Positions 22,526 to 54,953 of a stretch of 64,000 bases of DNA are shown here, in pieces. Within the stretch, counting starts at the first letter, position 1. Every line of letters begins with the position of its first letter. Made by a program: the position numbers and the translations under genes. The DNA is from a virus, in the IMG/VR virus record IMGVR_UViG_3300017917_003822, positions 206,630 through 270,629 of that record. One strand, 5' to 3'. The notes below the pieces were generated by a model. The model ran no database searches. It was not told the DNA's origin and saw nothing but the letters and a program-made list of their open reading frames with translations.

Positions 22526-22541
22526 TCAAAATTTATTTATC

Positions 22542-23093
22542 ATGGAAAAGAAAATCAACTTCGTCATCAGCAAAGAAGATAAGATTCGTTGGATCATAGA
22601 AAAACACGTTCAGACAAATCACCAATATTCAGAATATTTACCGTACGAGTTTCATTTAAGAATGGTAGCTCAGGTTGCTAAAGACTTCGACTACCTTATA
22701 CCATCCGAAGAAATGAGGGAGTCGATATTGATAGCTGCATACGGTCACGATCTTATCGAGGATACCAGAGTTTCCTATAATGATGTTAAATCTATCCTCG
22801 GCGTAACTGTGGCTGATATTATCTATGCATTAACCAATGAGAAGGGTAAAAATAGAAAGGAGAGAGCAAATTCTAAATATTATGAGGGCATCTTAGAAAC
22901 TCCAGGTGCAGTTTTTGTTAAACTCTGCGATCGTATTGCCAATGTTCAGTATTCTAAAATGACCAAAAGCAGAATGTTCGAAATGTACAAGAAGGAGAAT
23001 CCAGAATTTCTAACCAGTCTGGGATTTCCTAAGGGACAAAGTCACCCATTGGAGCCAATGAGTAAATATTTGTTAAATTTATTTGAGGATTAA
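22542..23093 (+). CDS. HD-domain hydrolase resembling small alarmone (p)ppGpp hydrolases (Mesh1/SpoT-HD-like)
   Basis: AAYGHDLIEDT...LGVTVADIIYALTNEKG...VFVKLCDRIANV fits the RelA/SpoT HD pattern (HDxxED...LADRLHN). ATG at 22542; the track extension overlaps smpB. Confidence 0.5.
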   Translation: MEKKINFVISKEDKIRWIIEKHVQTNHQYSEYLPYEFHLRMVAQVAKDFDYLIPSEEMRESILIAAYGHDLIEDTRVSYNDVKSILGVTVADIIYALTNEKGKNRKERANSKYYEGILETPGAVFVKLCDRIANVQYSKMTKSRMFEMYKKENPEFLTSLGFPKGQSHPLEPMSKYLLNLFED

Positions 23094-23096
23094 ATT

Positions 23097-23375
23097 ATGA
23101 AACATAAGGCCATCAGAGGTAACAGGGGTAACGGAAAACCAGCTAATCCCTACGCATATCCGGTTTCAAGTAACAGTACCACATATTATGGAATGACCCT
23201 GAGGGACCATTTTGCTGGGATAGCAATGCAGGGTCTGATCAGTAATTTTAAAGGTGATGTTTCCGCTAATTATGAAATTGTATCTATTGCTTCCTACAAG
23301 ATGGCCGATGCCATGCTAAAGGAAAGATGCATAGAGAGATCATTAGATACTGATGACGACCAATCAAAATTTTAA
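23097..23375 (+). CDS. hypothetical protein
   Basis: 92-aa ORF. Confidence 0.35.
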   Translation: MKHKAIRGNRGNGKPANPYAYPVSSNSTTYYGMTLRDHFAGIAMQGLISNFKGDVSANYEIVSIASYKMADAMLKERCIERSLDTDDDQSKF

Positions 23376-23384
23376 CGTTTATAA

Positions 23385-23417
23385 TTTTTTAATCCCGAAT
23401 GATATTCATATATTTAG
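23385..23417 (+). promoter_or_regulatory. promoter-like motif copy 6
   Basis: TTTTTT-AATCCCGA-N10-TATATTTAG. Confidence 0.35.
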
Positions 23418-23435
23418 GAAACTAAAATTAAAAGG

Positions 23436-23843
23436 ATGAAAAGATTAGAAAATTTTTTAGATACTGCCTCGACATGGAAGGTTTTTATTTTTGGATGGGT
23501 ATTTTCTGGAGTATTGGCCTTTCTATTATTTCAGTTCCTTCCAGACGGTACAGAATTGGAGAGAGACGCATTTATTAATTTTAAGATTGGTGCCACGATG
23601 GGGATTATATTAGGATTAGTTTTCGCTCTTCTGAACTCAATGGCCAAAAAATCTCAAAAATTTTGGGATTACTCAAAAGAAGTTAAATCGTTAATAGATA
23701 AGGCGGAAACTAAGGAGGAATTAAGTTCCATTTATAAAAATGAATTTAATACTTTGAGAAATTTATCGATGGGCAACCCACACTCAATGGAACTAACAAG
23801 ATTGTTCGCAATCTTGCAAACAAAACATAAATATGGAAAATAA
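23436..23843 (+). CDS. membrane protein
   Basis: Two hydrophobic segments near the N-terminus. Confidence 0.4.
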   Translation: MKRLENFLDTASTWKVFIFGWVFSGVLAFLLFQFLPDGTELERDAFINFKIGATMGIILGLVFALLNSMAKKSQKFWDYSKEVKSLIDKAETKEELSSIYKNEFNTLRNLSMGNPHSMELTRLFAILQTKHKYGK

Positions 23844-24501
23844 AAAGAAACATTTGGATGTGGAAAATCCAATGGCAATTCTTGCTGCTTTTACTCAAAT
23901 GATTTCTGATCCAGGTATCGGAAATTACTTTGGTGGTCTCATCAAAGAAATGGATCCAGAATCAAAGTACCCACACGACAAATTAGGTGGCGGCTATGAA
24001 TTACGTGAAATTGAAATTCTTGCAGAGGGTGGTCAATTCATCGTAAATAATCGAGAAAAATACTCACATTTATACCATAACGGATTAAAAGTTTCTGATG
24101 AAGTCTTTCGTAGAGGTGGAACCGGTGGTAAATTCAAGGATGGTTATTGTAAACTAATTCATTACATTCAAAAGGAGCCTCATACTGAAAAACGTCACGG
24201 ATTTGATTTTGGTACTCATGTTATCATTAATCACTTAGGTGATATTAAGCTGAAAGGAGAAGGTATATCCTCATACCCGGACCATATAGGAGGACACTTG
24301 GGATCTCTTGGTAATTATGTATATGACTTAAGAACAGGTGAAGCGATTGCGGTGAAAAGCTCAACCTCCATTACTGGCTCTAATTGTATCATAATCGATC
24401 ACCGTTACGAATGGTACAATAAGGATATCTCAATGCCTCTAGGCATTTACCAAATAGATTTCTGGACAGCAGAAATCAAAAAAATTGACGACGTAAAATA
24501 A
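23833..24501 (+). CDS. hypothetical protein
   Basis: 222-aa ORF. Confidence 0.4.
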   Translation: MENKKKHLDVENPMAILAAFTQMISDPGIGNYFGGLIKEMDPESKYPHDKLGGGYELREIEILAEGGQFIVNNREKYSHLYHNGLKVSDEVFRRGGTGGKFKDGYCKLIHYIQKEPHTEKRHGFDFGTHVIINHLGDIKLKGEGISSYPDHIGGHLGSLGNYVYDLRTGEAIAVKSSTSITGSNCIIIDHRYEWYNKDISMPLGIYQIDFWTAEIKKIDDVK

Positions 24502-24508
24502 ATCTACT

Positions 24509-25009
24509 ATGAAATTTAACTATATAGAAGGGGATTTAATCAAGTTAGCTAAAGAGGGTAAATTTGATGTCATCACACACGGATGCAACTGTTTATCCAC
24601 AATGGGAGCCGGAATTGCACCACAAATGGCAAAAGCTTTCGGGTGCGACAAATTTGAGATGGAGTTAATCGGACCAGATATCAATAAACTGGGAAACATC
24701 GACTACCAAACCATGGTTTTAGGTGAGAATGCAGTTTGGTCACTGGAGGATTTTAAAAATAATAGAAATGAACCTGAATTGATTGTTATTAATTCATACA
24801 CTCAATATCACTACGGAGGTCAAAAACCTCTAGATTATGAGGCATTGACATTGTGTCTCCGTAAAATCAATCATCAATTCAAAGGAAAGCATATCGGATT
24901 ACCAAAGATTGGAGCTGGATTGGCAGGAGGAAACTGGAATCGAATAGAGCACATCATACAAACGGAATTAAAAGACATGGAGGTGTCAGTGGTAATCTAT
25001 AAAGGATAA
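24509..25009 (+). CDS. Macro domain protein (ADP-ribose binding/processing)
   Basis: GDLIKL...DVITHGCNCLSTMGAGIA and IGLPKIGAGLAGGNW resemble macro-domain motifs (GDIT..DAIVNAAN..GGGV; AFPAISTG). Confidence 0.5.
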   Translation: MKFNYIEGDLIKLAKEGKFDVITHGCNCLSTMGAGIAPQMAKAFGCDKFEMELIGPDINKLGNIDYQTMVLGENAVWSLEDFKNNRNEPELIVINSYTQYHYGGQKPLDYEALTLCLRKINHQFKGKHIGLPKIGAGLAGGNWNRIEHIIQTELKDMEVSVVIYKG

Positions 25010-25030
25010 GAAACAAAGAAAAATATTAAA

Positions 25031-25189
25031 ATGAAAAGATTAAAAGACTTACTGGCTCCAGCCTACTTAGGATTTGCACTTTCTTTTTTTGCAAATCTGA
25101 GCTTTACAAACCCAAAATTTTGGGCAATATTAATTCCATTCCTGGTTATTGTAAAAGTAACAGGATTTAACACAAAAGAGAATGAGTAG
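25031..25189 (+). CDS. small membrane protein (52 aa, not in track)
   Basis: MKRLKDLLAPAYLGFALSFFANLSFTNPKFWAILIPFLVIV... Confidence 0.25.
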   Translation: MKRLKDLLAPAYLGFALSFFANLSFTNPKFWAILIPFLVIVKVTGFNTKENE

Positions 25190-25763
25190 AACAGAATTTC
25201 ACACAGGAAAATTATACCCGGTTAGATTCTCAGGATCTTTAGAAGAGGCCTGCAGGGATATTGCTAGAAGACACAATTTTGATCTTGGAGAAAACTGGAA
25301 GGAAGAATTCAGAGATAAATTTGACGAATATTCAAATAAAAAGGATCATGCCTCAGAGGAGTACTTTATTCATGGTGAAAATTTATATCGGGTAATAGAT
25401 CACGAGGAGAGTGACTCAGAGGAATATTTCATGAAGCTTATTAGAAATTCGGACGGTAGCATCTCATTTATAGGTCAATTTTATAACGGGGGTACATGTT
25501 TCTCGGAAATGCTGGAAGATGCACTTAGTGAACTAAAGCCGACCTACGTTGAACTTATAAGAAATGAGATTGATGAAATTGTTAAAGAACACAACCAACC
25601 TCAACCTAAGACTGTTCCAAGTGCAGGATCTCTGATTATGAAATATAGAGGTCTTGATAGAGCAAGGAAGCTTTTTGAGGGTGCAGCAGAGGAAACGAAA
25701 TCAGACGTATTTAAAAGTTCGGCTTACGAAGCAACCCTGAAAACAATTCTTAAATCTAATTAA
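25182..25763 (+). CDS. hypothetical protein
   Basis: 193-aa ORF. Confidence 0.4.
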   Translation: MSRTEFHTGKLYPVRFSGSLEEACRDIARRHNFDLGENWKEEFRDKFDEYSNKKDHASEEYFIHGENLYRVIDHEESDSEEYFMKLIRNSDGSISFIGQFYNGGTCFSEMLEDALSELKPTYVELIRNEIDEIVKEHNQPQPKTVPSAGSLIMKYRGLDRARKLFEGAAEETKSDVFKSSAYEATLKTILKSN

Positions 25764-26285
25764 ATGAAAACAATAGAGATAGAGGATTCGGTATACGAAA
25801 AGCTAATTGAGCTTGCAACCGAGATGACGACTCAAGATCCTAGATGTACGAGGATGCCTCACATGTTCCAGATCAGAGACTGGGAAAGAGATTATGATTG
25901 GAACCTAAATGGTGATACTAAGTGCTGGATCGATCGAGATGACGACTTTACTGTTATTGAGACGCTCGAAGAGTTCAAAGATCATCTGGCGTACTTGGGA
26001 ATTGATGCACCTGAAAATATTAATGAGCTTTGGGAGGACGATTGGGATTTAAAGGATTGGATCTCCGATAACTGCGATCGATTAGAAGAATGCTCGTATT
26101 CAATGAGAGCAATCTATAAGAACTGCTTCTTAACCGCAAAGGCTGCTGAAGAACATTTAAAGTCGAATTATTATCACTATCATCCAAACGCGGATGTTTA
26201 TTTAAATCATGCTTGGAGAAATCCGGAGGCAGATCTTGTATCGGAGTTTCTGTGCAGTTTGGTAGGAAAATCACTACATACATAG
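25764..26285 (+). CDS. hypothetical protein
   Basis: 173-aa acidic ORF. Confidence 0.4.
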   Translation: MKTIEIEDSVYEKLIELATEMTTQDPRCTRMPHMFQIRDWERDYDWNLNGDTKCWIDRDDDFTVIETLEEFKDHLAYLGIDAPENINELWEDDWDLKDWISDNCDRLEECSYSMRAIYKNCFLTAKAAEEHLKSNYYHYHPNADVYLNHAWRNPEADLVSEFLCSLVGKSLHT

Positions 26286-26364
26286 AACTTTTTCGGAGTA
26301 CTGATCTATAATAACAATTAACCAGCATCCAACCCAACGGAAGGTTGCACAATACCATATAATT

Positions 26365-27138
26365 ATGAAAGACGCACTAGGCGACAGAATGAAAGAGTTC
26401 TATGAGGATAGAACTAGAATCAAACTCCCAAGGAGAACCTACACAATTATCCGCATCGACGGAAAAGCATTTCACACTTACACAAAAGGATTAGAAAGAC
26501 CGTTTGACGAAGGTCTAATTGAAGACATGAACGGCACGACTGCATACCTGTGCAAGAATATACAGGGTGCTAAATTCGGTTACGTCCAATCCGATGAGAT
26601 CTCACTAGTATTAACAGATTTTGATGATCTAAGTACACACGCATGGTTTGATAACAATCTTCAAAAGATGGCTTCTGTTGCAGCATCGATGGCCACATCT
26701 GAATTTAATCGATTGAGATTGATGAGAGATTCAAAGAACGGAGCACTTGATATTCGAGAGCTAAACCTTTTTAAAATGGCACAGTTTGATGCTAGAGTGT
26801 TTCAAATTCCATTTATCGATGAAGTTGAAAACTACTTCATCTGGAGACAACAGGATGCAGTAAGGAATAGTATATCATCAGTTGCACAAAGCCTATACAG
26901 TCCAAAGCAACTACACGGGGTTAAGACTGATCAGATGCAGGAGATGATCTTTCAAAAAGGAATTAATTGGAACGACTATGATTTCCGTCTGAAAAGAGGT
27001 GCAGTTATCGGGAAGGTCCCAGTTGAGCTAACCAGCGGGGACGTAACTTACACAAGGAATAGATGGATGGTAATAGACACTCCAACATTTACTCAGGATA
27101 GAGAATTCATTAAAAATCTTTTAAAAATAGAAAAATGA
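26365..27138 (+). CDS. Thg1-like protein (tRNA-His guanylyltransferase family, 3'-5' nucleotidyltransferase)
   Basis: TIIRIDGKAFHTY, YVQSDEISLVL and FDARVFQIP...IWRQQDAVRNS align with the Thg1 N-terminal catalytic core (VVRLDGRNFHRF; YGQSDEYSFVF; FDGRVVVYP...SWRQADCHINN). Confidence 0.8.
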   Translation: MKDALGDRMKEFYEDRTRIKLPRRTYTIIRIDGKAFHTYTKGLERPFDEGLIEDMNGTTAYLCKNIQGAKFGYVQSDEISLVLTDFDDLSTHAWFDNNLQKMASVAASMATSEFNRLRLMRDSKNGALDIRELNLFKMAQFDARVFQIPFIDEVENYFIWRQQDAVRNSISSVAQSLYSPKQLHGVKTDQMQEMIFQKGINWNDYDFRLKRGAVIGKVPVELTSGDVTYTRNRWMVIDTPTFTQDREFIKNLLKIEK

Positions 27139-31452: not shown

Positions 31453-32196
31453 ATGTTTAAATTTTACGAAGTAGGTGGAAAAGTTAGAGATGAGATTTTA
31501 GGTCTAGAATCTAAGGACGTTGATTATGTTGCAGTTCCGAACGATGGGCTATTGGAAAAGAATCATGACGCTTATGAGATGTTTGTCATTCTCGAAACCT
31601 ATCTGCACAATCAGAATTTTGAAATTTTTCTAACAACACCAGAATGCTTTACGATCAGAGCAAAATTCCCGAAGGATCATAAATATCAAGGGGTTGCTGA
31701 TTTCGTGATGGCAAGGAAAGAGGTTGGATACATTCAGGGTACAAGAACTCCGATCATTAAACCTGGAACACTATATGATGATCTTGAAAGAAGAGACTTT
31801 ACTCTTAATGCACTAGCAAGAGATGAAGACGGTCAAATTATTGATTATTTCAATGGTTTAAACGATCTAAATGAGAAAAAGCTTGTAACCCCTCTGGAAG
31901 CAAAAACAACGATGCTAGACGATCCCTTAAGGCTTCTAAGAGCTTTCAGATTTTCAATCACCAAGGGATTTGAGATATCACCGGACATTATGAATACCTG
32001 CACGAGCAACGAGGTTATAGATAAGTTGGAGACTGTTGTTTCTCAGGAAAGAATCCGGGAGGAGATTTTTAAAATGACGAAGCATGACACATTAGGTACG
32101 TTGGAACTATTCGAGAGAATAAGAGTTCTAAACCCAAGAATTTTGAAAATTATATTCAGTAACGGTATGTGGCTAAAACCAACAAACGAGAAATAA
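31453..32196 (+). CDS. class II nucleotidyltransferase, CCA-adding enzyme / poly(A) polymerase head-domain type
   Basis: N-terminal YEVGGKVRDEILGLESKDVDYV matches the GG.VRD..LG...D.D head-domain signature. Confidence 0.55.
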   Translation: MFKFYEVGGKVRDEILGLESKDVDYVAVPNDGLLEKNHDAYEMFVILETYLHNQNFEIFLTTPECFTIRAKFPKDHKYQGVADFVMARKEVGYIQGTRTPIIKPGTLYDDLERRDFTLNALARDEDGQIIDYFNGLNDLNEKKLVTPLEAKTTMLDDPLRLLRAFRFSITKGFEISPDIMNTCTSNEVIDKLETVVSQERIREEIFKMTKHDTLGTLELFERIRVLNPRILKIIFSNGMWLKPTNEK

Positions 32197-35796: not shown

Positions 35797-37239
35797 ATGA
35801 CAACTATTTTATCTTTGGTATCTTACATAGTACCTGCAATTATCGGAATCTTTATTTTAATTTATATTCTCTCATTAAGGAGAATTGTACCAACCAATGT
35901 GGTTCACATCGTTCAAAGAGGAAACCAAACTGTTTCATACGGAACAAATAAACAATCAAATGTTTATTATGAATGGCCAAGCTGGCTACCTAAATTAGGG
36001 GTAACTGTTCGTGTTCTTCCTGTATCTAACTTCGATATTGATTTGAAACGTTATGAAGCTTATGATAAAGATCGTGTACCATTTGTCGTCGACGTTAAAG
36101 CTTTCTTCCATATTTCGAATACAAACATTGCAGCTGAAAAGGTTGAATCTTTCGAAGAACTTAGAGGCCAATTAGAAAATGTAGTTCAAGGTGCGGTTCG
36201 TTCAATCTTAGCTAAATCTAAATTGGAAGAGATCATGGAGGAACGTTCAGTCTTTGGTAAACAATTTACCGACGCAGTCAACACAGATTTACAAAACTGG
36301 GGTGTTGAAGCAATAAAAAGTATTGAATTAATGGACGTAAGAGACGCTGACGGATCTCACGTAATCCAACAGATCATGGCAAAACGTATGTCAGCAATCG
36401 ACATGGAATCAAGAACTGAAGTTGCTAAAAACCAGAAACTTGCGAAACAGGCAGAGCTTGAAGCCAAAAAAGAGATTGATGTAACTACGGCGGAGACTGA
36501 GAGAATTGCCGGAGAAGCACAAGCACAATCTCAACAAGCAATCGGTATCGCCAAAGCAGAATCGATGAAGAAAACTGGTATTGCCGAACAAGAGTCAATT
36601 TCAGAAATTGCCAGAGCCGAAAGAGCCACTGCAGAACAGCAAATGGAGGTTGTTAAGGTCAACCAGGTAAAACAAGCAGAGATCGACAGAGAGCGTGAAA
36701 TTATTACTGCCGAACAGGAAAAACAAAAAATGGAAATCCAGGCACAGGCTGATAAATTTAGAATTGAAACCGAAGCTGCTGCTCAATTAGAAGCAAAAAG
36801 AAAAGAGGCTGAGGCTGTTAAAACCGTCGGATCCGCAGAAGCAGAGGTTATTAAGGCTAAGGGTATTTCAGAGGCTGAATCTAAAAAGGCAATGGAATTG
36901 GCAGGGGTAACTGCACAAACAACACTGGCGAAAGAAATTGGTGAGAACAAGCCTTATCAAGAGTACTTAATTAAAGTTAAGGAAGTTGAAGTTAGTCAAG
37001 TTGTTGGAGTTGCTCAGTATGAGTCTATGGCAAAAGCATTATCAGCAGCTGACTTAAAGCTATTAGTTAACAGTGGAGATGTTCATTCTGGAATTGGTAA
37101 GTTATCTGACTTATTTACATCAAAGGGTGCATCTCAGATTAACGGGTTACTTGAAGGTCTAAAACAAACCGACGAGGGCAAGAATTTATTAGAGATGCTG
37201 AACGGCTTAACTTCGTCTAAGGTTACTAAATCTGAATAA
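35797..37239 (+). CDS. SPFH/band-7 (flotillin-like) domain protein with long coiled-coil
   Basis: N-terminal TM, then an SPFH-like region (VVHIVQRGNQ...VPFVVDVKAFFHISN...). A long E/A/K/Q-rich heptad region follows. Confidence 0.65.
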   Translation: MTTILSLVSYIVPAIIGIFILIYILSLRRIVPTNVVHIVQRGNQTVSYGTNKQSNVYYEWPSWLPKLGVTVRVLPVSNFDIDLKRYEAYDKDRVPFVVDVKAFFHISNTNIAAEKVESFEELRGQLENVVQGAVRSILAKSKLEEIMEERSVFGKQFTDAVNTDLQNWGVEAIKSIELMDVRDADGSHVIQQIMAKRMSAIDMESRTEVAKNQKLAKQAELEAKKEIDVTTAETERIAGEAQAQSQQAIGIAKAESMKKTGIAEQESISEIARAERATAEQQMEVVKVNQVKQAEIDREREIITAEQEKQKMEIQAQADKFRIETEAAAQLEAKRKEAEAVKTVGSAEAEVIKAKGISEAESKKAMELAGVTAQTTLAKEIGENKPYQEYLIKVKEVEVSQVVGVAQYESMAKALSAADLKLLVNSGDVHSGIGKLSDLFTSKGASQINGLLEGLKQTDEGKNLLEMLNGLTSSKVTKSE

Positions 37240-46245: not shown

Positions 46246-46530
46246 ATGAAAAAATTAATTTTTTTAATCTGCTTTATGTTTCTATTTTCTTGTCAGGAAA
46301 AAAAATACGAGCATATAGGTCAGGAGGTAATCGACGGTAAGGTCTCTGCTACTAAGGAGGGAAAGACAGCCTCATATGGGAGTCCAGCATATTCTCCAAA
46401 AATATGGGTACAAACACCAACAGAAACTAAAGAAGTGGAAATTCCATTTCGATACGAGGGGAGATGGAAAGTCGGTGACAGCTGCTTATTAATTATTGAA
46501 AAATATAAAGAAGTAACGGATGGAAAATAA
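46246..46530 (+). CDS. putative lipoprotein
   Basis: ATG at 46246 gives MKKLIFLICFMFLFSCQEKK (signal plus lipobox). Confidence 0.45.
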   Translation: MKKLIFLICFMFLFSCQEKKYEHIGQEVIDGKVSATKEGKTASYGSPAYSPKIWVQTPTETKEVEIPFRYEGRWKVGDSCLLIIEKYKEVTDGK

Positions 46531-47110
46531 GAATATATTCATATTACCCACAGACAGACCGACCTGGTTACATAAATCATTATTGAGTGGAATTTTAAGA
46601 AAATCATCAGCCTGTATTGGTGATATGAAACAAGCACAAGGGATGAATATCTATATTACTTCCAACGAAGAAATTAAAGAGGGTGATTGGTGTTTGGATG
46701 AAGATGGGTTAAAGAAATGTACTGCTCACGCAGGTGCTATGAATCATTATTTTGAAAAAATCATCCTAACAACAGACCAAGACTTAATCAACGATGGTGT
46801 ACAAGCTATTGATGATGAGTTTTTAGAATGGTTTGTTAAGAATCCAAGTTGTGATGAGGTTGAAGTTGGATATGGGCGGATTAGGCTCACCGAAACTGAC
46901 AATAAAGGATATTGGGTTGCTATTCCTAATGCAGAATTTAATATGCAAGAAGAAAAACCTAAACAAGAAAAATCTGAAGATAAATTCCAATCTTGGGATG
47001 AATTAATAAAAGAAGTAGGTGGTGAAAAAGAATTATTAAGAATACTAAAACTTCCACATATAGCACCTTTAGTCAGAGAAGCAATGAGGAGTAATTGTAA
47101 AAACAAATAA
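46520..47110 (+). CDS. paralog family A member 1
   Basis: Shares NIYITS(N/D)E(E/K)IKEGDW and ILTTDQDLI(N/K)DGVQAIDDEFLEWFVKNPSC with the two following genes. Confidence 0.45.
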   Translation: MENKNIFILPTDRPTWLHKSLLSGILRKSSACIGDMKQAQGMNIYITSNEEIKEGDWCLDEDGLKKCTAHAGAMNHYFEKIILTTDQDLINDGVQAIDDEFLEWFVKNPSCDEVEVGYGRIRLTETDNKGYWVAIPNAEFNMQEEKPKQEKSEDKFQSWDELIKEVGGEKELLRILKLPHIAPLVREAMRSNCKNK

Positions 47111-47199
47111 GACTATGATGGAAGACTTTTTACTTATTTTCGCAATAATCTATACCTTAATGTATGGATTAAAAATTTGGGAGGAAAACAAATAATGAT

Positions 47200-47913
47200 A
47201 TGAAAAACATACACGTATTACCAACAGAAAAAGCAAGCAATGGATATGTTCTTGGAAAATGTATCAAAGAATTATCAGATGTAAAAATAGGTCAATTTAC
47301 TAAAACCTATTATTTAATGTTTGATGAAAAATATTTTCAACCACATAACATCTACATTACTTCCGATGAAAAAATTAAAGAAGGAGATTGGTTCTTACCG
47401 CAAGGACATATAAATCCTCATAAACTAAAAGGATATAATAAAATCAATGGGGATTTAGAAAGTTATAATGGGTTATGTTATGATATTTCAAAATGTAAAA
47501 AAATCATCCTAACAACAGACCAAGATTTAATCAAGGATGGTGTACAAGCTATTGATAATGAGTTTTTAGAATGGTTTGTTAAGAATCCAAGTTGTGAGTG
47601 GGTTGAGGTTGAAATAGAATCAAAGTTTGACAGAGTTGATGGTCATTATCATGATGTGTGGGAAATAATCATTCCAAAAGAAGAAGCTAAACAAGAAACA
47701 CTTGAAGAAGCTGCAGAGAGATGGGTATTTGAAACAAATGGGCATAAATGGTCCAATAACGACGATAGCGCAGGGGACAATTTCGGATCTTTCGTTGCAG
47801 GTTCAAGGTGGAGATCTGATAATTCATACACTCTGGATGAATTAAAGGAGGCTTATTCTATGGGGAGATTAGGAAAATCGATCTCAGAATTCAACGAAAG
47901 ATTCAAAAATTAA
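47200..47913 (+). CDS. paralog family A member 2
   Basis: ~100 nt of DNA is near-identical with member 1 (46748-46850 vs 47506-47608). Confidence 0.45.
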   Translation: MKNIHVLPTEKASNGYVLGKCIKELSDVKIGQFTKTYYLMFDEKYFQPHNIYITSDEKIKEGDWFLPQGHINPHKLKGYNKINGDLESYNGLCYDISKCKKIILTTDQDLIKDGVQAIDNEFLEWFVKNPSCEWVEVEIESKFDRVDGHYHDVWEIIIPKEEAKQETLEEAAERWVFETNGHKWSNNDDSAGDNFGSFVAGSRWRSDNSYTLDELKEAYSMGRLGKSISEFNERFKN

Positions 47914-47916
47914 TCT

Positions 47917-48591
47917 ATGAAAAATTTACATATATTACCGACATCCAAACCAAGTAGATTATATGAATTTGGTGGTGCATATTATATTCAAGACAAGCCA
48001 CAAGAAAATTTTAGAAGTTATAATATCTACATCACTGGGGAGGAAAAAATTAGGATAGGGGATTGGGTAATTGATGATGATTATGACGAACCAGTATTAT
48101 ATAAAGCAGACAAATATTTTTTTGATATTGGTAAGGAAGCTAGAAAAATCATATTAACAACCGACACAGAATTAATTGACGGAGGGGTACAGAACATCCA
48201 AGATGTATTTTTAAGTTGGCTGATCCAGAATCCAACTTGTGAGAAGGTCGAGGTTAGAAAAAATCCAAAAGTGAGTGGAATAGTAAAAGGTTTGGGTATT
48301 AAAAGTTTCGACAACGGTTATAAAATAATAATACCCAAGAATAAGAATAAAGAAGAGAAAGTTAACGAACCTCAAAACTTAAAAAACTTTAAAAAATTAG
48401 ACAGTGCAGCCATGGACGATTCCATAAAGAAAAAAGAAGCAATTGACGGGATTATTGGGGGATTATTTAAGAAATATTCAAACAATACTTCACTAGCTGA
48501 GGGTGATTATGAACACCTAATGGATAGCGAAGATTTTAGAGAAGCTTCTATTGAATTGATTGAATGGTTAGAAAAATTTAAAAAGGAATAG
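47917..48591 (+). CDS. paralog family A member 3 (more diverged)
   Basis: MKNLHILPTSKPSRL...NIYITGEEKIRIGDW...ILTTDTELIDGGVQNIQDVFLSWLIQNPTC. Confidence 0.45.
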   Translation: MKNLHILPTSKPSRLYEFGGAYYIQDKPQENFRSYNIYITGEEKIRIGDWVIDDDYDEPVLYKADKYFFDIGKEARKIILTTDTELIDGGVQNIQDVFLSWLIQNPTCEKVEVRKNPKVSGIVKGLGIKSFDNGYKIIIPKNKNKEEKVNEPQNLKNFKKLDSAAMDDSIKKKEAIDGIIGGLFKKYSNNTSLAEGDYEHLMDSEDFREASIELIEWLEKFKKE

Positions 48592-49495: not shown

Positions 49496-49864
49496 ATGGA
49501 AAAAGAATTTATACCTTATGAACAGGCATTAGCTTTAAAAGAATTAGGATTTGATGAACCATGTTTTTGGTTATATGATGGAAAAATACTTAAAACTCAA
49601 ATTATACCAAGTAGTAATTCTGATTTTAAATATATTGATATAGTTCAAGCACCACTTAAACAACAAGCATTTAGATGGTTTAGAGAAAAGTATAAATTAT
49701 GTGGTTTAATTGAGATTGGAACACAAGAGTTTTCTTATCAAGTTTTTAATAATAAAGGGAATAGACAACTTGGAACTGAACCTATAAGCTATAATGGAAC
49801 CTACGAAGAAGCAGAACTTGAATGTTTAAAGAAACTAATTGAAATTGTTAAAGATAAGAAATAA
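49496..49864 (+). CDS. paralog family B member 1
   Basis: MEKEFIPYEQALALKELGFDEPCF...FRWFREKYKL...GTYEEAELECLKKLIEIVKDKK. Confidence 0.4.
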   Translation: MEKEFIPYEQALALKELGFDEPCFWLYDGKILKTQIIPSSNSDFKYIDIVQAPLKQQAFRWFREKYKLCGLIEIGTQEFSYQVFNNKGNRQLGTEPISYNGTYEEAELECLKKLIEIVKDKK

Positions 49865-50271
49865 TGGAAAAAGAATTTGTGCCTTATGAACAAGCACTAA
49901 CTTTAAAAGAACTTGGTTTTGATGAACCTTGTTTAGGTTACTACTTAACTAATTTGTTAACAAACGAAGTAAAACTATTTATTGATAATAGAACAGGACT
50001 TTCATCATTTGAAAAAACTACACCTGCTCCAACATTCTCTCAAGTATTTAGATGGTTTAGAGAGAAGTATAACTTGAGAGGATTTATTGGATTTAGACCA
50101 AATGTAAAAAAATTTGATTGTCATGTTTATGATATGTCTCTGTCTGGCAAAGAATATGTTGAACAAAGAACTATGGAAGAGTTTAACAAAGACCCTAAAG
50201 TTGGAACCTACGAAGAAGCAGAACTTGAATGTTTAAAGAAACTAATTGAAATTGTTAAAGATAAGAAATAA
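49864..50271 (+). CDS. paralog family B member 2
   Basis: C-terminal ~80 nt (including stop and next start) is identical to member 1 (49797-49875 vs 50204-50282). Confidence 0.4.
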   Translation: MEKEFVPYEQALTLKELGFDEPCLGYYLTNLLTNEVKLFIDNRTGLSSFEKTTPAPTFSQVFRWFREKYNLRGFIGFRPNVKKFDCHVYDMSLSGKEYVEQRTMEEFNKDPKVGTYEEAELECLKKLIEIVKDKK

Positions 50272-50777
50272 TGGAAAAAGAATTTATTCCTTACGAACAA
50301 GCATTAGTTTTAAAAGAATTAGGATTTGATGAACCTTGTTTTAAATATGTTTATATTGGAGATACTGGAAATAACTTTGATCATTATCTTGAAGTAGAAC
50401 CATCAAAGGCAAAAAATTATAATGAGGATGATTTATGTATATCACAGCCAACTTACTCAGCAGCATTTAGATGGTTTAGAGAGAAGTATAATATTCATCA
50501 TTCAATGAGACCCGTGGTTGGATCTAAAAATGGATACGACTCATATCCAATTTTGGGGTGGGAATCAGATATTTTTGCTACAAATCAAGGAACTCAAAAT
50601 TCATATTACATGGGATATCCGGTCTGTGAGTGGTTCACAGCAACACTAGATAATTTTGACGAGGGTGACACATTGAAGGATTTGAATTTAGATCCACTTA
50701 AATATGAAGAGGCAGAGCTTAAATGTTTAAAAAATATTATAAAATACGTCAAAAAAGAAAAGCTGAATGGAAGATAA
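50271..50777 (+). CDS. paralog family B member 3 (diverged C-terminus)
   Basis: Same N-terminus MEKEFIPYEQALVLKELGFDEPCF and the FRWFREKYN motif. Confidence 0.4.
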   Translation: MEKEFIPYEQALVLKELGFDEPCFKYVYIGDTGNNFDHYLEVEPSKAKNYNEDDLCISQPTYSAAFRWFREKYNIHHSMRPVVGSKNGYDSYPILGWESDIFATNQGTQNSYYMGYPVCEWFTATLDNFDEGDTLKDLNLDPLKYEEAELKCLKNIIKYVKKEKLNGR

Positions 50778-50894: not shown

Positions 50895-50982
50895 AGTCAG
50901 GTGACTGGTGTCTGCACAGTAAGCTGTGTGTTGGTTCGATCCCAACGAGGTGTAAATTCAGGTTCGAATCCTGTCCTGACTA
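50895..50982 (+). tRNA. tRNA-like gene U1 (non-canonical: two T-loop-like hairpins)
   Basis: 7-bp acceptor AGTCAGG/CCTGACT, D-like hairpin ACTG-GTGTCTGCA-CAGT, internal GTTGG-TTCGATC-CCAAC, T arm CAGG-TTCGAAT-CCTG, discriminator A. No encoded CCA. 88 nt. Confidence 0.4.
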
Positions 50983-51335
50983 CTAAGGTTAAACATTGAA
51001 TACCTTTGTAAATGTTAGAAGTGAGGAAGAGTACCTCAATAAAAAATAAGTTCAATTAAGAACAAATAATTTACATAAAGATACTATCAGTAATGGTAGA
51101 TGTGTTGTTCCCTTGAGAAAGGAATGGGCAAAGGTGGCTAATTAAAGTTAACAACAACTCCACACAACACAAATGAGTTCTCAGCAAGTAGTTCGAAAAG
51201 CTATGCAGTTTTAAAACTCTTATGGAGCCTTACAAACTAGAACTACGTGACCCTACTCCACTTGGGCGATTCACAGATGAGTTGTTAAGACAGGTTTGAA
51301 TCCTGTATTGTCCTACCGAAAGAGGGTGCTAAAAA

Positions 51336-51457
51336 AGTCAGGTGGCAGAATGGTAAACGCATGCTCCATCGGTGATACATCTCCTCGATGGACATGGTAT
51401 TTATTAAGTTCGCTTAATAATGTAAAACTGGTGCAGGTTCGAATCCTGCCCTGACTT
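51336..51457 (+). ncRNA. tRNA-like gene U2 with ~45-nt extra structure (122 nt)
   Basis: Same acceptor AGTCAGG/CCTGACT and T arm GCAGG-TTCGAAT-CCTGC. Leu-like D region GCAG-AATGGTAAA-CGC. Internal 11-bp hairpin with 14-nt loop, plus a 7-bp hairpin with a UUCG tetraloop. Confidence 0.4.
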
Positions 51458-51474
51458 CTATTAACTACAAAGAA

Positions 51475-51696
51475 ATGAAAAATCCAAAAATCAAAACGAA
51501 GGTTGTGCATTCAGAATCAAAACCTGCATGGAATATAATAGGAACAACATTGGGAGGAAAGTACAAAATAGCAAGAGTCCCTTATTTAGTGGAAACTGGA
51601 AATGATATTATAGACGCCAGGGAAAAAGCTGAAGCACTTGAACATGCAAATTTCATATCCTTCTGTTTTAACAATTCAGATTCAATCTGCAAGTAA
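51475..51696 (+). CDS. hypothetical protein
   Basis: 73-aa ORF between tRNA-like genes. Confidence 0.35.
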   Translation: MKNPKIKTKVVHSESKPAWNIIGTTLGGKYKIARVPYLVETGNDIIDAREKAEALEHANFISFCFNNSDSICK

Positions 51697-51716
51697 CTAA
51701 AAAAATCTCAAGAATT

Positions 51717-51749
51717 ATTTTTTTATTCCGATCTGATATCTTACATTAG
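51717..51749 (+). promoter_or_regulatory. promoter-like motif copy 13
   Basis: TTTTTTT-ATTCCGAT-N9-TACATTAG. Inside the tRNA-like array. Confidence 0.35.
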
Positions 51750-51781
51750 CAAAGTAAAAATAAACAAAAAGTTAAATCTAG

Positions 51782-51913
51782 ATGTTGGTAGAAATTTGTA
51801 ATTATTGCAACAAGTTGCTGGGAATATTAATCTTTAACGGTAAACCCTGCTGTCAATTTTGTGAGGAGGAACAGAAAAAGAAATCAAAAAATACCAAAGA
51901 AAATGAAAAGTAG
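51782..51913 (+). CDS. mini zinc-ribbon protein (43 aa, not in track)
   Basis: MLVEICNYCNKLLGILIFNGKPCCQFCEEEQKKKSKNTKENEK has two CxxC pairs. Follows promoter motif 51717-51749. Confidence 0.25.
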   Translation: MLVEICNYCNKLLGILIFNGKPCCQFCEEEQKKKSKNTKENEK

Positions 51914-52151
51914 AGGATGCAACGATTGCAAGAACTACAAATCAGAATTCGATTTCTGGGGAGAGAAACCAACACAAAGAATATGTTTATCTGGTAATGA
52001 TCTCGAGGTAAATGCATGGTGGAGGGATAATGGCAGAAAAAATATCAATGATGAGGTGGATTCAATGGATTGTTTCGAGGAGACAGAGTCTTCGAAAATG
52101 CTGAATAAAATGTCATCTTTATTGGATAAGATGAACGAAGTTCTAAAATAA
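51903..52151 (+). CDS. hypothetical protein with CxxC motif
   Basis: ATG at 51903 gives MKSRGCNDCKNYK. The track start 51861 overlaps the mini-ORF. Confidence 0.35.
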   Translation: MKSRGCNDCKNYKSEFDFWGEKPTQRICLSGNDLEVNAWWRDNGRKNINDEVDSMDCFEETESSKMLNKMSSLLDKMNEVLK

Positions 52152-52155
52152 AAAA

Positions 52156-52325
52156 GGTCGGGTGGCGGAATTTAATCGATTGCTGAAATTGGCCAATCTA
52201 CGAATCGATTATCGGTAGACGTTATGAGAAAACCCAAATACTGAGGGCGTCCATCTAGGGAGTGATAAAGGCAATACTAGTTTACCAATCAGGCTCCCGT
52301 CCAGGTTCGAATCCTGTACCGACTA
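52156..52325 (+). ncRNA. tRNA-like gene U3 with ~95-nt palindrome-rich insertion (170 nt)
   Basis: Acceptor GGTCGGG/ACCGACT (one mismatch) and T arm CCAGG-TTCGAAT-CCTGT. Leu-like GCGGAAT D region. Insert contains paired palindromes AATCGATT x2 and ATTGGCCAAT. Confidence 0.35.
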
Positions 52326-52486
52326 CAATGAGTTGATTACTCAGATGGATTCATCTATCCTGAAAGATGCCGACATACTCTTGGGCGTAAGGCAAGAGCG
52401 GGTTTTGAAATTCAGTAGCGCCGTTACGGAAACTGAGCTCGGAGGGCAATAAACTTCGTGAGGTCTAATCAACCGTAATTGCAAAT

Positions 52487-52564
52487 AGTCAGGTGGCGGA
52501 ATTGGTAGCGCATTTCTCTATACCAACGAGAATCGGAGTGCAGGTTCGAATCCTGTCCTGACTA
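52487..52564 (+). tRNA. tRNA-like gene U4 (canonical length, 78 nt; anticodon arm irregular so isotype unassigned)
   Basis: AGTCAGG-TG-GCGGAATTGGTAGCGC (Leu-like D arm) ... GCAGG-TTCGAAT-CCTGT-CCTGACT-A. Best anticodon stem TCTC/GAGA leaves an ATACCAA loop. Confidence 0.45.
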
Positions 52565-52579
52565 CTAAAAATTGGAAGT

Positions 52580-53194
52580 ATGATAGTAAATAAAATTGAA
52601 TTTCCTAAGTTCACTGGAGTAAAATGTAATATGATGCCATTCATCCAGGGGGACAGTTCATCATTACCAGATGAATATAAATCCTACTCAAAAATAGTCG
52701 AGGAGAATTATATTGAGAAGGGAGAGGTTGGCTATCTAACTATTGACGAATCCTTTGTTAGTTCGGGTGAATCCCAAAGAGGGTACAATTCCAAAGGGAT
52801 TAACAGAAACGTTCATATAGAAGTTGGACGATGTGGTGATAAAAACAGATGGGGAGGAAGTGGAGGAGGATCGTCTTGGGGAGGTAGAAATCAAACTTTT
52901 CTTTCCGACGACACAATGGTTCTAATTGCCAATAACATTTCTGACACTTGCAGGGTGTGGGACACAAAGGAGTTATCATACACAGATGACGGGGATTTGA
53001 GTGAGTACATAGACAAATATCCTGAGAATACCGGGATTATGTTAAAATCGGGTGAGGTTGCAAAGATAAGTATTTTTACTCCGCATGAATGCGTTACACA
53101 AAAAGAATCAGGTCTTAGACAATTCTTCAGGATTGTCGGTAAAGGTGTCACTGGGAGAGAAGAATATTTTACAATTAATCCATTGTTGAATTAG
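52580..53194 (+). CDS. hypothetical protein (Gly-rich centre)
   Basis: 204-aa ORF between tRNA-like genes. Confidence 0.4.
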   Translation: MIVNKIEFPKFTGVKCNMMPFIQGDSSSLPDEYKSYSKIVEENYIEKGEVGYLTIDESFVSSGESQRGYNSKGINRNVHIEVGRCGDKNRWGGSGGGSSWGGRNQTFLSDDTMVLIANNISDTCRVWDTKELSYTDDGDLSEYIDKYPENTGIMLKSGEVAKISIFTPHECVTQKESGLRQFFRIVGKGVTGREEYFTINPLLN

Positions 53195-53321
53195 TTACAA
53201 AAGCCCTAAGGCCAAGGGATCGTAGAACAGAAGCTGCCTCTTAACAATGCACACTGACTTCTCTGAATCGTAAGTCAGCACAGTTTCGGATGTTCTGGTG
53301 GTATTATAAAAACATCTAAAA

Positions 53322-53431
53322 GGTCAGGTGGCGGAATTGGCTATCGCACTCCACTTAAATATGGAGAGTATTGTTTCAACACAGTTAATCAGGTGAAAGG
53401 CACCATACAGGTTCGAGTCCTGTCCTGACCA
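53322..53431 (+). ncRNA. tRNA-like gene U5 with ~35-nt insertion in the variable region (110 nt)
   Basis: Perfect acceptor GGTCAGG/CCTGACC and T arm ACAGG-TTCGAGT-CCTGT. D arm GCGG-AATTGGCTAT-CGC. Anticodon-like hairpin CTCCA-CTTAAATA-TGGAG has an 8-nt loop containing UAA. Confidence 0.4.
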
Positions 53432-53633: not shown

Positions 53634-54245
53634 ATGGAATTTGTAAAAAAACCGGCATTTAATTATACACATCTCAAAGGATTGAGAAAATACATTAAGA
53701 ATACTAAAGGATTTATAGCCGGAGGGTGTTTTAAAGATATTTTTTCAGGAAAGAAACTTAGAGACGTCGATATTTTCTTCCCAACTGAGGAGGACTATAA
53801 CAAGGCACTTGAGATCTACACAAAAAAATGCAAGGGTAAAAAAGGGGGATTGAGTGAGATATACTCTAATGATAATTGCACAGGATACAGAGATTCCAAA
53901 AGAGGTATAAATATTGAGCTTATAAAATCTATATTTGGAAATCCGGAGGATGTTATTAATCAATTTGATTTTACTGTGGTTCAAGCGGCATATTTCAATC
54001 CGGAGGGGGACGAACCAATACAGTTCATATATCACCCGCAGTTTTTTGAACACCTAACCCTAAAAAGGTTGGTTGTTAACTCCGATAATATAGTAAAACC
54101 TGTCTCAACTCTAAACAGGGCATTTAAATATGCCGGGTATGGGTTTGGTTTATGTCGGGAGAGTAAGGTAACTTTGACTAAAGCTGTTATCGAGAGAGGA
54201 GTTGTTGACGATATTAACGGCGATCTTTATTTTGGATTCGATTAA
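53634..54245 (+). CDS. second nucleotidyltransferase with poly(A) polymerase/CCA-enzyme head-like motif
   Basis: KGFIAGGCFKDIFSGKKLRDVDIFFP follows the GG.hRD..hG....D.Dh head pattern, as in 31453-32196. Confidence 0.4.
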   Translation: MEFVKKPAFNYTHLKGLRKYIKNTKGFIAGGCFKDIFSGKKLRDVDIFFPTEEDYNKALEIYTKKCKGKKGGLSEIYSNDNCTGYRDSKRGINIELIKSIFGNPEDVINQFDFTVVQAAYFNPEGDEPIQFIYHPQFFEHLTLKRLVVNSDNIVKPVSTLNRAFKYAGYGFGLCRESKVTLTKAVIERGVVDDINGDLYFGFD

Positions 54246-54518: not shown

Positions 54519-54953
54519 ATGAGTAAAGTAAAGATTTCAACAGATAAGGGAGATATGATCGCGGAATTATATGATAAGGAAACTCCGATCACAGTAAACA
54601 ACTTTTTAAAGTTGATCAACGAGGGATTTTATAACGGATTGAATTTTCATCGAGTTATTCCAAATTTCGTTATCCAAGGAGGATGTCCAAATGGGACAGG
54701 TGCAGGTGGTCCTGGTTACACTATTCCGTGTGAGGTAACCGCACCTAATCAATACCATGACAGAGGAGTTTTATCCATGGCGCATGCAGGGCGTAATACC
54801 GGAGGATCTCAGTTCTTCATCTGTCACAGCAGACAAAACACTGCACACCTTGACGGAAACCACACATGCTTCGGTAAAGTTGTGGAGGGATTGGATATTA
54901 TAGATTCGATCCAAATGGGAGATAAAATTAATTCAATCACAGTAACAGAGTAA
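54519..54953 (+). CDS. cyclophilin-type peptidyl-prolyl cis-trans isomerase
   Basis: [29 protein letters not shown] and [10 protein letters not shown] are cyclophilin signatures. Confidence 0.85.

Follow-up and report, generated by a model that had tools for sequence, protein, structure and literature searches.

The sequence analysed in this work is a 64,000-nt stretch of viral DNA (hereafter, the window) that corresponds to positions 206,630 to 270,629 of the IMG/VR virus record IMGVR_UViG_3300017917_003822. Between positions 50,895 and 53,431 of the window lies an array of five tRNA-like units (U1 to U5), which share their ends and differ in their middles. An earlier reading of the letters alone (hereafter, the original prediction) had placed the five units at the following coordinates, all on the + strand, and sequence reading bore this out:

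50895..50982, + strand: U1, with an intact acceptor stem (AGTCAGG/CCTGACT), T arm and A73, and without a Leu-type D arm
51336..51457, + strand: U2, 122 nt, with intact acceptor stem and T arm, D region GCAGAATGGTAAACGC and discriminator U
52156..52325, + strand: U3, 170 nt, with acceptor GGTCGGG/ACCGACT, a D-loop hairpin and a ~75-nt insert in the anticodon/variable region
52487..52564, + strand: U4, 78 nt, with a complete Leu-type set of conserved parts, a 5-bp anticodon-like stem with the 9-nt loop UAUACCAAC, and a short variable region
53322..53431, + strand: U5, 110 nt, with a G1-C72 acceptor variant, a complete Leu-type D arm and the T loop TTCGAGT

Structure of the five units

The shared acceptor and T-arm ends, already pointed out in the original prediction, are real: the T-arm word CAGGTTCGAATCCTG, with up to three mismatches allowed, has 7 occurrences in the window, where 1.28 would be expected (a count of 7 was reached in 0 of 100 shuffles), and the 5' word GTCAGGTGGCGGAATTGG is found 4 times against 0.02 expected. 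The units are also richer in G+C (0.44-0.50) than the window (0.36). U1, U2, U4 and U5 display a 7-bp acceptor stem together with a 5-bp T stem and a 7-nt T loop, and in U3 the same arrangement is disturbed by mismatches at two neighbouring positions where the acceptor and T stems meet (G7.A66 and C49.U65, by direct sequence reading). A D arm with A14, G18G19 and the U8/U48 partners is present in U2 to U5, being split by a hairpin in U3, and is missing from U1. The discriminator is U in U2 and A in the other four units, position 74 is C in all five, and none of them encodes CCA, as had been stated. A Leu-type D region had been described as common to four units; it is exact in U4 and U5 (GCGGAATTGG), whereas U2 reads GCAGAATGG and the U3 copy is interrupted by the hairpin. 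Besides the five T arms that had been listed, a sixth T-arm-like copy (CAGGTTTGAATCCTG, 51291-51305) had been overlooked, which has no matching 5' acceptor strand and belongs to a conserved spacer RNA.

In U1, a second T-loop-like hairpin (GTTGG-TTCGATC-CCAAC) occupies the place of the anticodon arm, and the insert of U2 consists of a long bulged hairpin and a UUCG-capped hairpin, both as predicted; T-loop-like hairpins inside inserts are not restricted to U1 and are also found in related loci (e.g., L067, L104, L110 and L130; loci are designated by L and a number). U3 carries the predicted palindrome (TAATCGATT...AATCGATTA), but its additional sequence is not a single insert of ~95 nt: since the D-region motif is split by a 39-nt D-loop hairpin (52173-52211, between A14/A15 and G18/G19), U3 holds two separate insertions. 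The anticodon arm of U5 (CTCCA-CUUAAAUA-TGGAG) has an 8-nt loop of UAA type with one extra nucleotide, and in its variable region a 36-nt insert with two small hairpins precedes the T arm. The minimum free energy (MFE) was -28.2 kcal/mol for U1, -37.9 kcal/mol for U2 and -34.3 kcal/mol for U5, with z-scores against shuffles of -2.41, -2.77 and -2.43, respectively.

A standard anticodon arm (5-bp stem, 7-nt loop, U33 and a purine at 37) was found in none of the five units; the loop measures 9 nt in U4 and 8 nt in U5, and U1 to U3 have no such arm. Since they lack a standard anticodon loop, the units are predicted to be unable to decode. Further, the annotation tools did not render every unit as an ordinary cloverleaf; ordinary cloverleaves throughout were the outcome that the original prediction had named as contrary to it. 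U4 is the sole tRNA that ARAGORN calls in the whole 64 kb, under the label 'Tyr ata' and with the 9-nt loop in its fold, and Rfam places only U4 (45.9 bits) and U5 (48.2 bits) above its tRNA threshold; U1 and U2 are called by neither program, and nothing else in the window passes in Rfam even at E<=10, neither transfer-messenger RNA (tmRNA) nor group I/II introns.

The unit family, its chassis and its inserts

As read from the sequences, the units are composed of a constant part, here called the chassis, and a variable insert. The chassis comprises the 7-bp acceptor stem (AGUCAGG/CCUGACU), U8, the Leu-type D arm (A14, A15, G18G19), U48, the T arm, A73 and C74, and the insert sits at the position of the anticodon and variable arms, sometimes also in the D loop.

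Exact matching of the 22-nt 3' module retrieved at least 119 IMG/VR contigs, many with several copies (eight inside 3.4 kb in L011). Among bacteria and archaea (GTDB, one genome per species; 185,579 species and 32 million contigs), the module was found in 30 contigs, all from metagenome-assembled genomes; 17 carry Bacteroidota titles, several come from lakes, and at least 2 of the 30 matches are ordinary Patescibacteria tRNAs that share the pattern by happenstance. Among cultured phages (INPHARED, 50,697 records), a joined query of both end modules returned none with both chassis halves. From these searches, 187 distinct complete units of 69-191 nt were collected. Of the tRNA-shaped elements with the AGTCAGG chassis, 134 of 200 are longer than 92 nt, and 160 of 265 with other acceptors measure at most 77 nt. 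Related units sit inside phage tRNA arrays, such as those of L048 (19 tRNAs) and L089 (~30 tRNAs and a tmRNA), and chassis units reach Rfam tRNA scores of 31-50 bits as compared to 55-77 bits for the best real tRNAs alongside. A few short members look like ordinary tRNAs on the same chassis, e.g., L051 Lys(ttt) and L086 Ile(tat) by ARAGORN. With gathering and permissive thresholds, Rfam searches of the window and of 27 multi-unit or related loci yielded only tRNA, tmRNA and one near-threshold freshwater-1 RNA; the end sequences occur in no paper by sequence search, and keyword searches gave no description of the chassis family. Taken together, the units constitute a large family of tRNA-shaped small RNA genes, present almost only in phage-type contigs.

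Regarding conservation along the chassis, positions A73, C74, CCA, U(-1) and U48 lie outside the search patterns, and U8, A14 and A15 lie inside the 5' pattern (up to three mismatches) and are partly ascertained. Outside the patterns, A73 is kept in 90% of the family units, C74 in ~95%, U48 in 87% and U(-1) in 82%, and CCA is encoded in 5 of 187; inside the 5' pattern, U8 is kept in 99%, A14 in 95% and A15 in 94%. The T loop is likewise conserved across the family. With key positions conserved in 82-99% of the units, a family diversified by insertion while keeping its processing parts, one of the options offered in the original prediction, is the best-fitting description.

The stems of the chassis also covary. 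In the insert family C106, the acceptor is AGTCAGG/CCTGACT in 6 of 8 aligned members, and the same insert is found on GACCGGG/CCCGGTC and AACAGAG/CTCTGTT; RNAalifold reports double compensatory changes in 9 of 31 pairs and 0 broken pairs in the acceptor or T stems, the insert retaining ~90% identity with 12 of the 14 acceptor nucleotides exchanged. In the insert family C83 it is the D stem that covaries (CTACA/TGTAG versus CGACA/TGTCG), and the five counted units of L184, a locus retrieved, as were L152 and L208, through a protein and not through the RNA pattern, have the T-stem variant ACAAG/CTTGT in common. Conversely, the true tRNA-Leu(UAA) genes of the same loci, used as a control, show the inverse pattern, their anticodon arm (CAGGACUUAAAAUCCUG) being conserved and their acceptors varying; given these canonical genes, the phages already have a Leu decoder.

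The identity of bacterial tRNA-Leu for leucyl-tRNA synthetase (LeuRS) resides in A73 and the core formed by U8-A14, A15-U48, G18-U55 and G19-C56, the anticodon arm being dispensable for charging (PMC2377443), and RNase P, in one account, measures the stack of acceptor and T stems plus the elbow (PMC4919913). The chassis keeps precisely the LeuRS identity set, which is also the set read by RNase P and by other 'molecular ruler' enzymes, and we infer that it is a working tRNA top half. Since this set is kept and the anticodon arm is ignored by the enzyme, the units may be leucylated by LeuRS.

The inserts, on the other part, are highly diverse. Those of ~163 of the 187 distinct units are unrelated to any other, those of the window have no orthologue among 241 loci, and a 6-mer enrichment analysis of 163 non-redundant inserts revealed no shared insert k-mer, only leftover D-arm words. 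In unit pairs with 82-100% insert identity the 150-nt flanks are unalignable, and in most of 15 tested locus pairs the remaining 10-14 kb share ~1% (blastn or tblastx). An insertion site in the D loop, between A15 and G18, recurs (U3 of the window, L029, L064, L066, L082/L148, L089/L135, L184 and L208), and the predicted unit architectures range from two to six arms. These comparisons suggest that the inserts are neither filler nor introns, and that they behave as exchangeable accessory cassettes.

Two matches of insert sequences deserve mention by themselves. A 15-nt same-strand match of a window insert at 26701 is located in coding sequence, at the chance limit. A 16-mer of C83 (TAGGTCGTAAGCCCTA) is perfectly antisense to an invariant stretch (...GANVRAYDLTQAG...) of a conserved gene of 12 small viral contigs (L214-L216, L220, L221, L225, L227, L230, L232 and L234 among them), a match probably due to chance, as it extends by 1 nt only and the number of hits fits chance by a rough estimate.

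The two stem mismatches of U3, the missing D arm of U1 and the solo T-arm-like hairpin at 51290-51306 would be expected if the units were decaying tRNA pseudogenes arisen by duplication in a hyperplastic region. The original prediction had argued against such decay, and rightly so, for whole units are 82-100% identical between otherwise unrelated loci, their acceptor and T stems covary, conservation is family-wide, and the 'solo T arm' turns out to be a conserved, covarying part of a spacer RNA; the pseudogene explanation is judged to be largely refuted by the comparative data, and hardly credible.

According to another explanation, the units are insert-containing pre-tRNAs whose non-group-I introns would be cut by an endonuclease and resealed by the phage kinase, phosphoesterase and ligase to give decoders, or else U4 and U5 would decode with their 9-nt and 8-nt loops for frameshifting or recoding. 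The RNA-repair set encoded in the window (Rnl1-type and Rnl2-like ligases, AAA_33 kinase, metallophosphoesterase, cREC, Macro, Thg1-like and CCA enzymes) is in line with this, as are the UAA-type loop of U5 with its one extra nucleotide and the ordinary-looking short members of L051 and L086. However, the small removable introns of the original prediction are not supported. When introns of 0-200 nt are allowed, ARAGORN fits almost anything, and the outcome is a scatter of isotypes, many implausible A34 anticodons and intron positions from 26 to 42; the anticodons called across the family are similarly scattered, often A34 or of 2 or 4 nt. An intron at a fixed site that restores a standard tRNA was not found, most inserts are shorter than 150 nt, and inserts occur in the D loop too. 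The Intron_gpI and Intron_gpII models gave no match even at E<=10 (no dedicated scan for bulge-helix-bulge motifs was made), and no splicing endonuclease was matched in Pfam among the 60 ORFs (open reading frames) scanned. Canonical tRNA-Leu(UAA) genes are, moreover, already present in the same loci. We regard pre-tRNAs as quite improbable. The related idea of recoding or suppressor tRNAs was rejected on codon usage, as TAA, TGA and TAG stops are all used in the window and no recoding is evident.

Other structured RNAs are found beside the family. A freshwater-1 RNA (RF02979, 70.1 bits; gathering score 72) lies at 4124-4186 of L020 within a phage tRNA array holding four chassis units, which indicates that orphan structured RNAs of several kinds gather in such arrays. 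A second family of long tRNA-like elements (138-176 nt, discriminator G) was observed in the viral contigs L015, L045, L062 and L108 and at 3789-3925 of L137, with covarying acceptors (TGTCAGG, TGTAGAG, TGTAAGG and TGACAGG) and no Rfam match. Its four viral copies contain the core ...CGTCTCGTGGGCGCTGA...GGGTTGACCACAAAGCCGGCT..., and the L137 copy, a looser relative with the first block only, lies on a complete Chitinophagales chromosome (OZ244113.1).

Spacer RNAs, neighbouring genes and genome context

Between and around the units, the following elements are found:

50983..51335, + strand: spacer RNA 'type 2', between U1 and U2; homologous blocks in L082 and L184, 5' block in 13 loci
51102-51108 (GTGTTGT), 51109-51124 (hairpin with TTGAGAA loop), 51164-51170 (ACAACAC) and 51178-51183 (TTCTCA): parts of the type 2 predicted pseudoknot
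51475-51696, + strand: ORF73, phrog_38014; starts 17 nt after the 3' end of a unit
51782-51913 and 51861-52151, + strand: small ORFs between units
52326..52486, + strand: spacer RNA 'type 3', between U3 and U4; homologous to the inter-unit spacer of L148 (160-273)
52580-53194, + strand: ORF204, phrog_8970; starts 15 nt after the 3' end of a unit
53195..53321, + strand: spacer RNA 'type 4', upstream of U5; blocks common to L080 (~6750-6900) and L239 (~265-410)
53634..54245, + strand: class II-like nucleotidyltransferase (NTase), 203 aa, with GGxxxD...DxD and DFT motifs; 200 nt downstream of U5

The interleaving with small ORFs described in the original prediction is correct, but the 'non-coding gaps' are conserved elements themselves: each of the array's three long stretches of non-coding DNA is matched by homologous sequence just before units of unrelated contigs. 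The 5' block of type 2 is always located upstream of a unit in its 13 loci. This spacer contains a motif (GTGTTGT-TCCC-TTGAGAA-AGGA ... ACAACAC-AGAGGA-CTTCTCA-TCCTC) predicted to fold as a pseudoknot, in which GTGTTGT would pair with ACAACAC (P1) and the loop TTGAGAA with that of a second hairpin, TTCTCA(A). The motif occurs 15 times in 13 loci (beyond the window, L237, L092, L013, L020, L031/L219, L054, L071, L075, L089, L132, L184 and L082) and stops a few nucleotides short of the +1 of the next unit. In the predicted structure, 95.5% of cells are paired as compared to 36-58% in slid controls, with double changes in 3 pairs, and compensatory pairs include GATAA/TTATC in L020, GAGAAC/GTTCTC in L054 and TTTC/GAAA in L237. 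It is not in Rfam, and a literature search by sequence found nothing; the motif may act as a processing element, be set free as a small RNA, or represent a ribozyme not yet recognised. The T-loop-like hairpin at 51290-51306, the 'sixth T arm' mentioned above, is a covarying part of the long version of this spacer, which has the 3' block AAGAGGGTGCTAA at 51320-51332.

Just after U1 (~50990-51013), the block TAAACATTGAATACCTTTGTAAAT is conserved in L082 (~5690-5662, minus strand), and similar words are found in L011. It includes TAnnTTTG, which we take to be the Bacteroidota -7 promoter element; the block is probably a promoter driving the spacer and U2, and is a hint of a Bacteroidota host. Type 3 and its L148 homologue share 36 nt at 94% and 22 nt at 100% identity, in the same order, and both end right at the 5' end of the next unit; the G+C of type 3 is 0.447 versus 0.361 in the window. 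Type 4 has a 25-nt block (CTCTGAATCGTAAGTCAGCACAGTT) and flanking blocks in common with L080 and L239, in both of which a unit follows ~45 nt downstream. Like type 3, type 4 reaches up to a unit's 5' end, and the internal hairpins of both types differ by compensatory-looking changes.

The units and ORFs of the window are tightly packed: an ATG follows the 3' end of a unit after 13-17 nt, and a unit follows an ORF stop codon after 4-11 nt. Across the family, an ORF starts 8-35 nt downstream of 26% of the units as compared to 8.9% of random positions. The leaders after the units are short and A-rich, CAAAAATAAAGTTATG being identical after U5 and after a unit of L089. On the + strand, no terminator was found between units and window ORFs, the sole match lying inside U5, and a scan of the window for sigma-70 promoters and terminators gave the same result as shuffles. 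The tight packing, the three-fold enrichment of ORF starts, the lack of terminators and the conserved spacer RNAs that end exactly at unit 5' ends would all suit pure punctuation, that is, units acting as RNase P/RNase Z cleavage signals in polycistronic transcripts with functionless filler as inserts, as in the mitochondrial tRNA punctuation model and in MALAT1-mascRNA. Nevertheless, a minimal signal needs no inserts of 40-140 nt or D-loop hairpins, many units are found in pure tRNA arrays with no ORF nearby, and filler would not stay 82-100% identical between unrelated loci or persist through acceptor turnover. We consider it rather unlikely that punctuation is all that the units provide.

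Through ORF73, ORF204 and NTase synteny, 63 homologous loci were identified, 3 of which have chassis units nearby and none the same insert. Homologues of ORF204 were found in 55 loci, and units adjoin them in L152, L184 and L208 only, each with different inserts; its closest relatives (~80% nucleotide identity) share only the ORF, the homology beginning 3 nt past the end of U4. The homologues of ORF73 in other phages have no units alongside. As homologues of both ORFs mostly lack neighbouring units, ORFs and units represent independent cassettes, and the comparison points to accessory units in a mosaic region. The same border next to U4, the position of units at cassette borders in L152, L184 and L208, and the recurrence of the same unit in unrelated genomes also speak for DNA-level recombination linkers, whose ~25-nt identical ends would serve as homology patches for cassette shuffling by co-infecting phages, the fold being a relic. 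Against such linkers, compensatory changes have occurred on both strands of the acceptor and T stems, and the conserved tertiary nucleotides, A73, C74 and U(-1) are RNA-level signatures not needed by a DNA patch; recombination may be a by-product and not the function. Linkers are therefore considered very unlikely.

The NTase downstream of U5 matches phrog_1614 'nucleotidyltransferase' (2e-10) and phrog_4400 (1e-50), and its match to E. coli poly(A) polymerase is weak, at motif level, and not significant (E 1.6). Upstream of its homologue in L157, another aberrant tRNA-like element is observed (L157 3912-3982), with acceptor AGCCAAT/ATTGGCT, a T arm (GTTGG-TTCGATT-CCAAC) equal to that of the internal hairpin of U1, and a 2-nt 'anticodon' by ARAGORN.

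An RNA-repair and translation-rescue island is encoded at 6066-11046, 16418-17560, 22082-27138 and 31453-32196 of the window, and includes a pol-beta NTase, an Rnl1-type ligase, a metallophosphoesterase, an AAA_33 kinase, a cREC (cyclic-phosphate processing) domain, an Rnl2-like ligase with PHA02142 OB fold, SmpB, an HD protein, a Macro domain, a Thg1-like protein and a CCA-type head domain. The genomic context given in the original prediction is thus largely borne out, with the two ligases, the metallophosphoesterase, the kinase, the Thg1-like protein, the CCA-type head domain, SmpB and, next to U5, the second, class II-like NTase; its PTH2 was not found among the scanned ORFs. As SmpB is encoded and the window holds no tmRNA, the latter is expected elsewhere in the genome. 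The island fits a phage heavily invested in tRNA-end chemistry; by itself, it does not link the enzymes to the units.

Such a dense island (two ligases, kinase, phosphoesterase, cREC, Macro, Thg1-like and CCA enzymes) signals conflict over tRNA integrity, and in this context the units could be top-half decoys or sponges that titrate tRNA-directed toxins or sensors reading the acceptor, T arm and elbow or the CCA end. Acceptor-stem nucleases, CCA-modifying toxins and aminoacyl-tRNA acetyltransferases would be their targets, with anticodon nucleases, the case raised in the original prediction, for a few units; the insert would be of minor importance or adapted to escape cleavage. The conserved part is exactly the top half, the presence of units varies between related phages as that of anti-defence genes does, and U5 keeps a tRNA-Leu(UAA)-like loop. 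In decoys, however, inserts should shrink or drift, yet they are conserved across unrelated phages, even on replaced acceptors. Most inserts mimic no anticodon arm, which argues against anticodon-loop mimicry and leaves room for a top-half decoy, and no defence system targeting tRNA-Leu top halves was identified in this analysis. Decoys are, in our view, unlikely.

The genome as a whole is huge-phage-like: the window weakly matches uncultured phage records of 462-735 kb at the nucleotide level, and ORF204 has homologues on IMG/VR contigs that reach 391 kb, three of which measure 210-391 kb. Two sets of small ORFs, each of three tandem paralogues, immediately precede the array (49496-50777 and 46520-48591), and one set begins MEKEF(I/V)PYEQAL.LKELGFDEPC; neither set contains a Pfam domain, and homologues are found near units in 11 and 8 other loci, respectively. 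The member at 50271-50777 has weak matches only, to unannotated PHROGs. Other phage cargo of the window, ordinary yet noteworthy, includes a cyclophilin-type peptidyl-prolyl isomerase, a ClpP protease and an SPFH/Band 7 protein (54519-54953, 11061-11729 and 35797-37239).

Proposed function and comparison with known systems

With moderate confidence, we propose that the five units are non-decoding, tRNA-Leu-derived chassis RNAs in which the replaceable insert is the selected payload; for phages, the tRNA shape is probably a means of having RNAs with other functions processed and kept stable, and our best guess for the payloads is host-takeover or anti-defence functions. According to this model, the units would be co-transcribed with neighbouring tRNAs, spacer RNAs and small ORFs. 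RNase P would recognise the L-shaped top half and act at its 5' end, where U occupies position -1; the 3' end would be cut by RNase Z or a different nuclease, and a CCA-adding enzyme, of which the phage itself may encode one or two, would complete the tail after the encoded C74. Excision would thereby free a stable tRNA-shaped RNA displaying the insert, and from the polycistronic transcript the same cuts would yield discrete spacer RNAs as well as mRNAs whose leaders are short and A-rich. As for the original prediction, its interpretation is partly supported, and its observation is confirmed and was understated.

Several points weigh against the proposed payload function. Transcription, processing, stability and charging are all deduced from sequence. 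U1 has no D arm and U3 has two helix mismatches, so that some copies may be decaying. The exact conservation of the acceptor is partly an ascertainment effect of the search pattern, independent support coming from the window paralogues and from L152, L184 and L208. As a class, the inserts are modestly structured (mean z of -0.62 versus -0.27 in controls, p = 0.0015); none matches a known RNA family in Rfam, and those of the window show no antisense complementarity above chance (11-12 nt) to the other 61 kb. An all-against-all clustering of 1,959 ORFs from ~150 loci revealed no consistent protein partner, the best-recurring cluster near units (16 of ~150 loci) looking like an ordinary phage protein. 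Finally, the identical units of unrelated phages could be due to recent horizontal transfer and not to purifying selection on the insert.

A broader reading is offered only tentatively, as it is doubtful: many unrelated, probably Bacteroidota-infecting phages, several of them from freshwater metagenomes, would share a chassis-and-cargo RNA system in which host tRNA maturation (and possibly LeuRS) is hijacked, and more than 150 payloads are exchanged horizontally like integron cassettes. Together with the pseudoknotted spacer RNAs released by the same cuts, these would give the phages a stock of accessory RNAs serving host takeover or anti-defence, which current annotation misses altogether.

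Stable RNAs of unknown function, such as T4 RNA C and D, have been known in phage tRNA clusters for 50 years, and of RNAs of this kind the present family provides natural variants by the hundred, each joining a constant tRNA-Leu top half to a variable insert. If the proposal is correct, tRNA maturation would constitute a general platform of phages for the expression and processing of small RNAs, a natural counterpart of the engineered tRNA scaffold, and gene finders and tRNA predictors would systematically miss the units or mis-call them with spurious anticodons. It would also open the way to tests of tRNA mimics in infection, of their acceptance by LeuRS, RNase P and the CCA enzyme, and of a link to the RNA-repair islands of huge phages; in addition, the arrays flag at least three further uncharacterised conserved spacer RNAs.

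Among known RNAs, tRNA-Leu, especially tRNA-Leu(UAA), resembles the units in the D arm (GGCGGAAUUGGUAGACGC), U8, A14, A15-U48, G18G19, the T loop and A73, and U5 and a few relatives also have its CUUAA-type loop. Unlike tRNA-Leu, the units mostly lack a 5-bp/7-nt anticodon arm and carry inserts of 20 to more than 140 nt, and their acceptor sequence is essentially absent from bacterial genomes. In tmRNA, as in the units, the ends pair as an acceptor/T-arm domain without an anticodon arm, with a large functional insert between them, and related phage loci carry tmRNA genes, which ARAGORN and Rfam find there. However, position 3:70 of the units is U-A and not the G.U determinant of AlaRS, the inserts are too short and too diverse, and neither the tmRNA mode of ARAGORN nor Rfam RF00023 found a tmRNA, a tag ORF or a resume codon in the window.

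In MALAT1-mascRNA and the TMERs of MHV68, tRNA-like modules are RNase P/RNase Z processing handles for neighbouring RNAs and are themselves released, the same working principle as that proposed for the units; these systems are eukaryotic nuclear and herpesviral, their functional RNA lies beside the module and not inside it, and there is no homology. In the engineered tRNA scaffold (Ponchon and Dardel approach), the anticodon arm is swapped for an arbitrary RNA, and the cell processes and stabilises the product. The units share this architecture, but they are natural, multi-copy, confined to phage-type contigs, and also have D-loop insertions. The topology of YrlA RNAs is reversed, with the RNA ends at the anticodon-equivalent position, whereas the termini of the units form the acceptor stem, and the window has no Rfam Yrl match; YrlA RNAs are described as tRNA mimics in one report (PMC4201824). 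Unnamed tRNA-like candidates among the RNAs of IMG/VR, called inconsistently by ARAGORN, were mentioned in a survey of 2023, which gave no shared chassis or variable inserts (PMC10690425).

T4 RNA C (species 1 RNA, rnaC), the function of which is still unknown (PMC3014915; PMC9697503), also lies within a phage tRNA cluster. It measures ~139 nt. Its 3' part comprises a canonical T arm (CCGGG-UUCGAAU-CCCGG) and then a strand that forms, with the 5' terminus, a 7-bp stem resembling an acceptor (by sequence reading, two U.U and 5 standard pairs, the MFE fold pairing only 3), and its ~95-nt middle consists of long hairpins in the place of the anticodon arm. Unlike the units, it has two U.U in the stem, no Leu-type D arm and a single copy, and T4 is absent among the listed matches of cultured phages to the joined end-module query; in T4 RNA D, a T arm is missing. 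Like RNA C, related units are embedded in tRNA arrays, whereas the window itself has no canonical tRNA nearby. With an architecture shared without sequence similarity, the units are classed as working like T4 RNA C and not as members of its type, and T4 RNA C is their nearest precedent.

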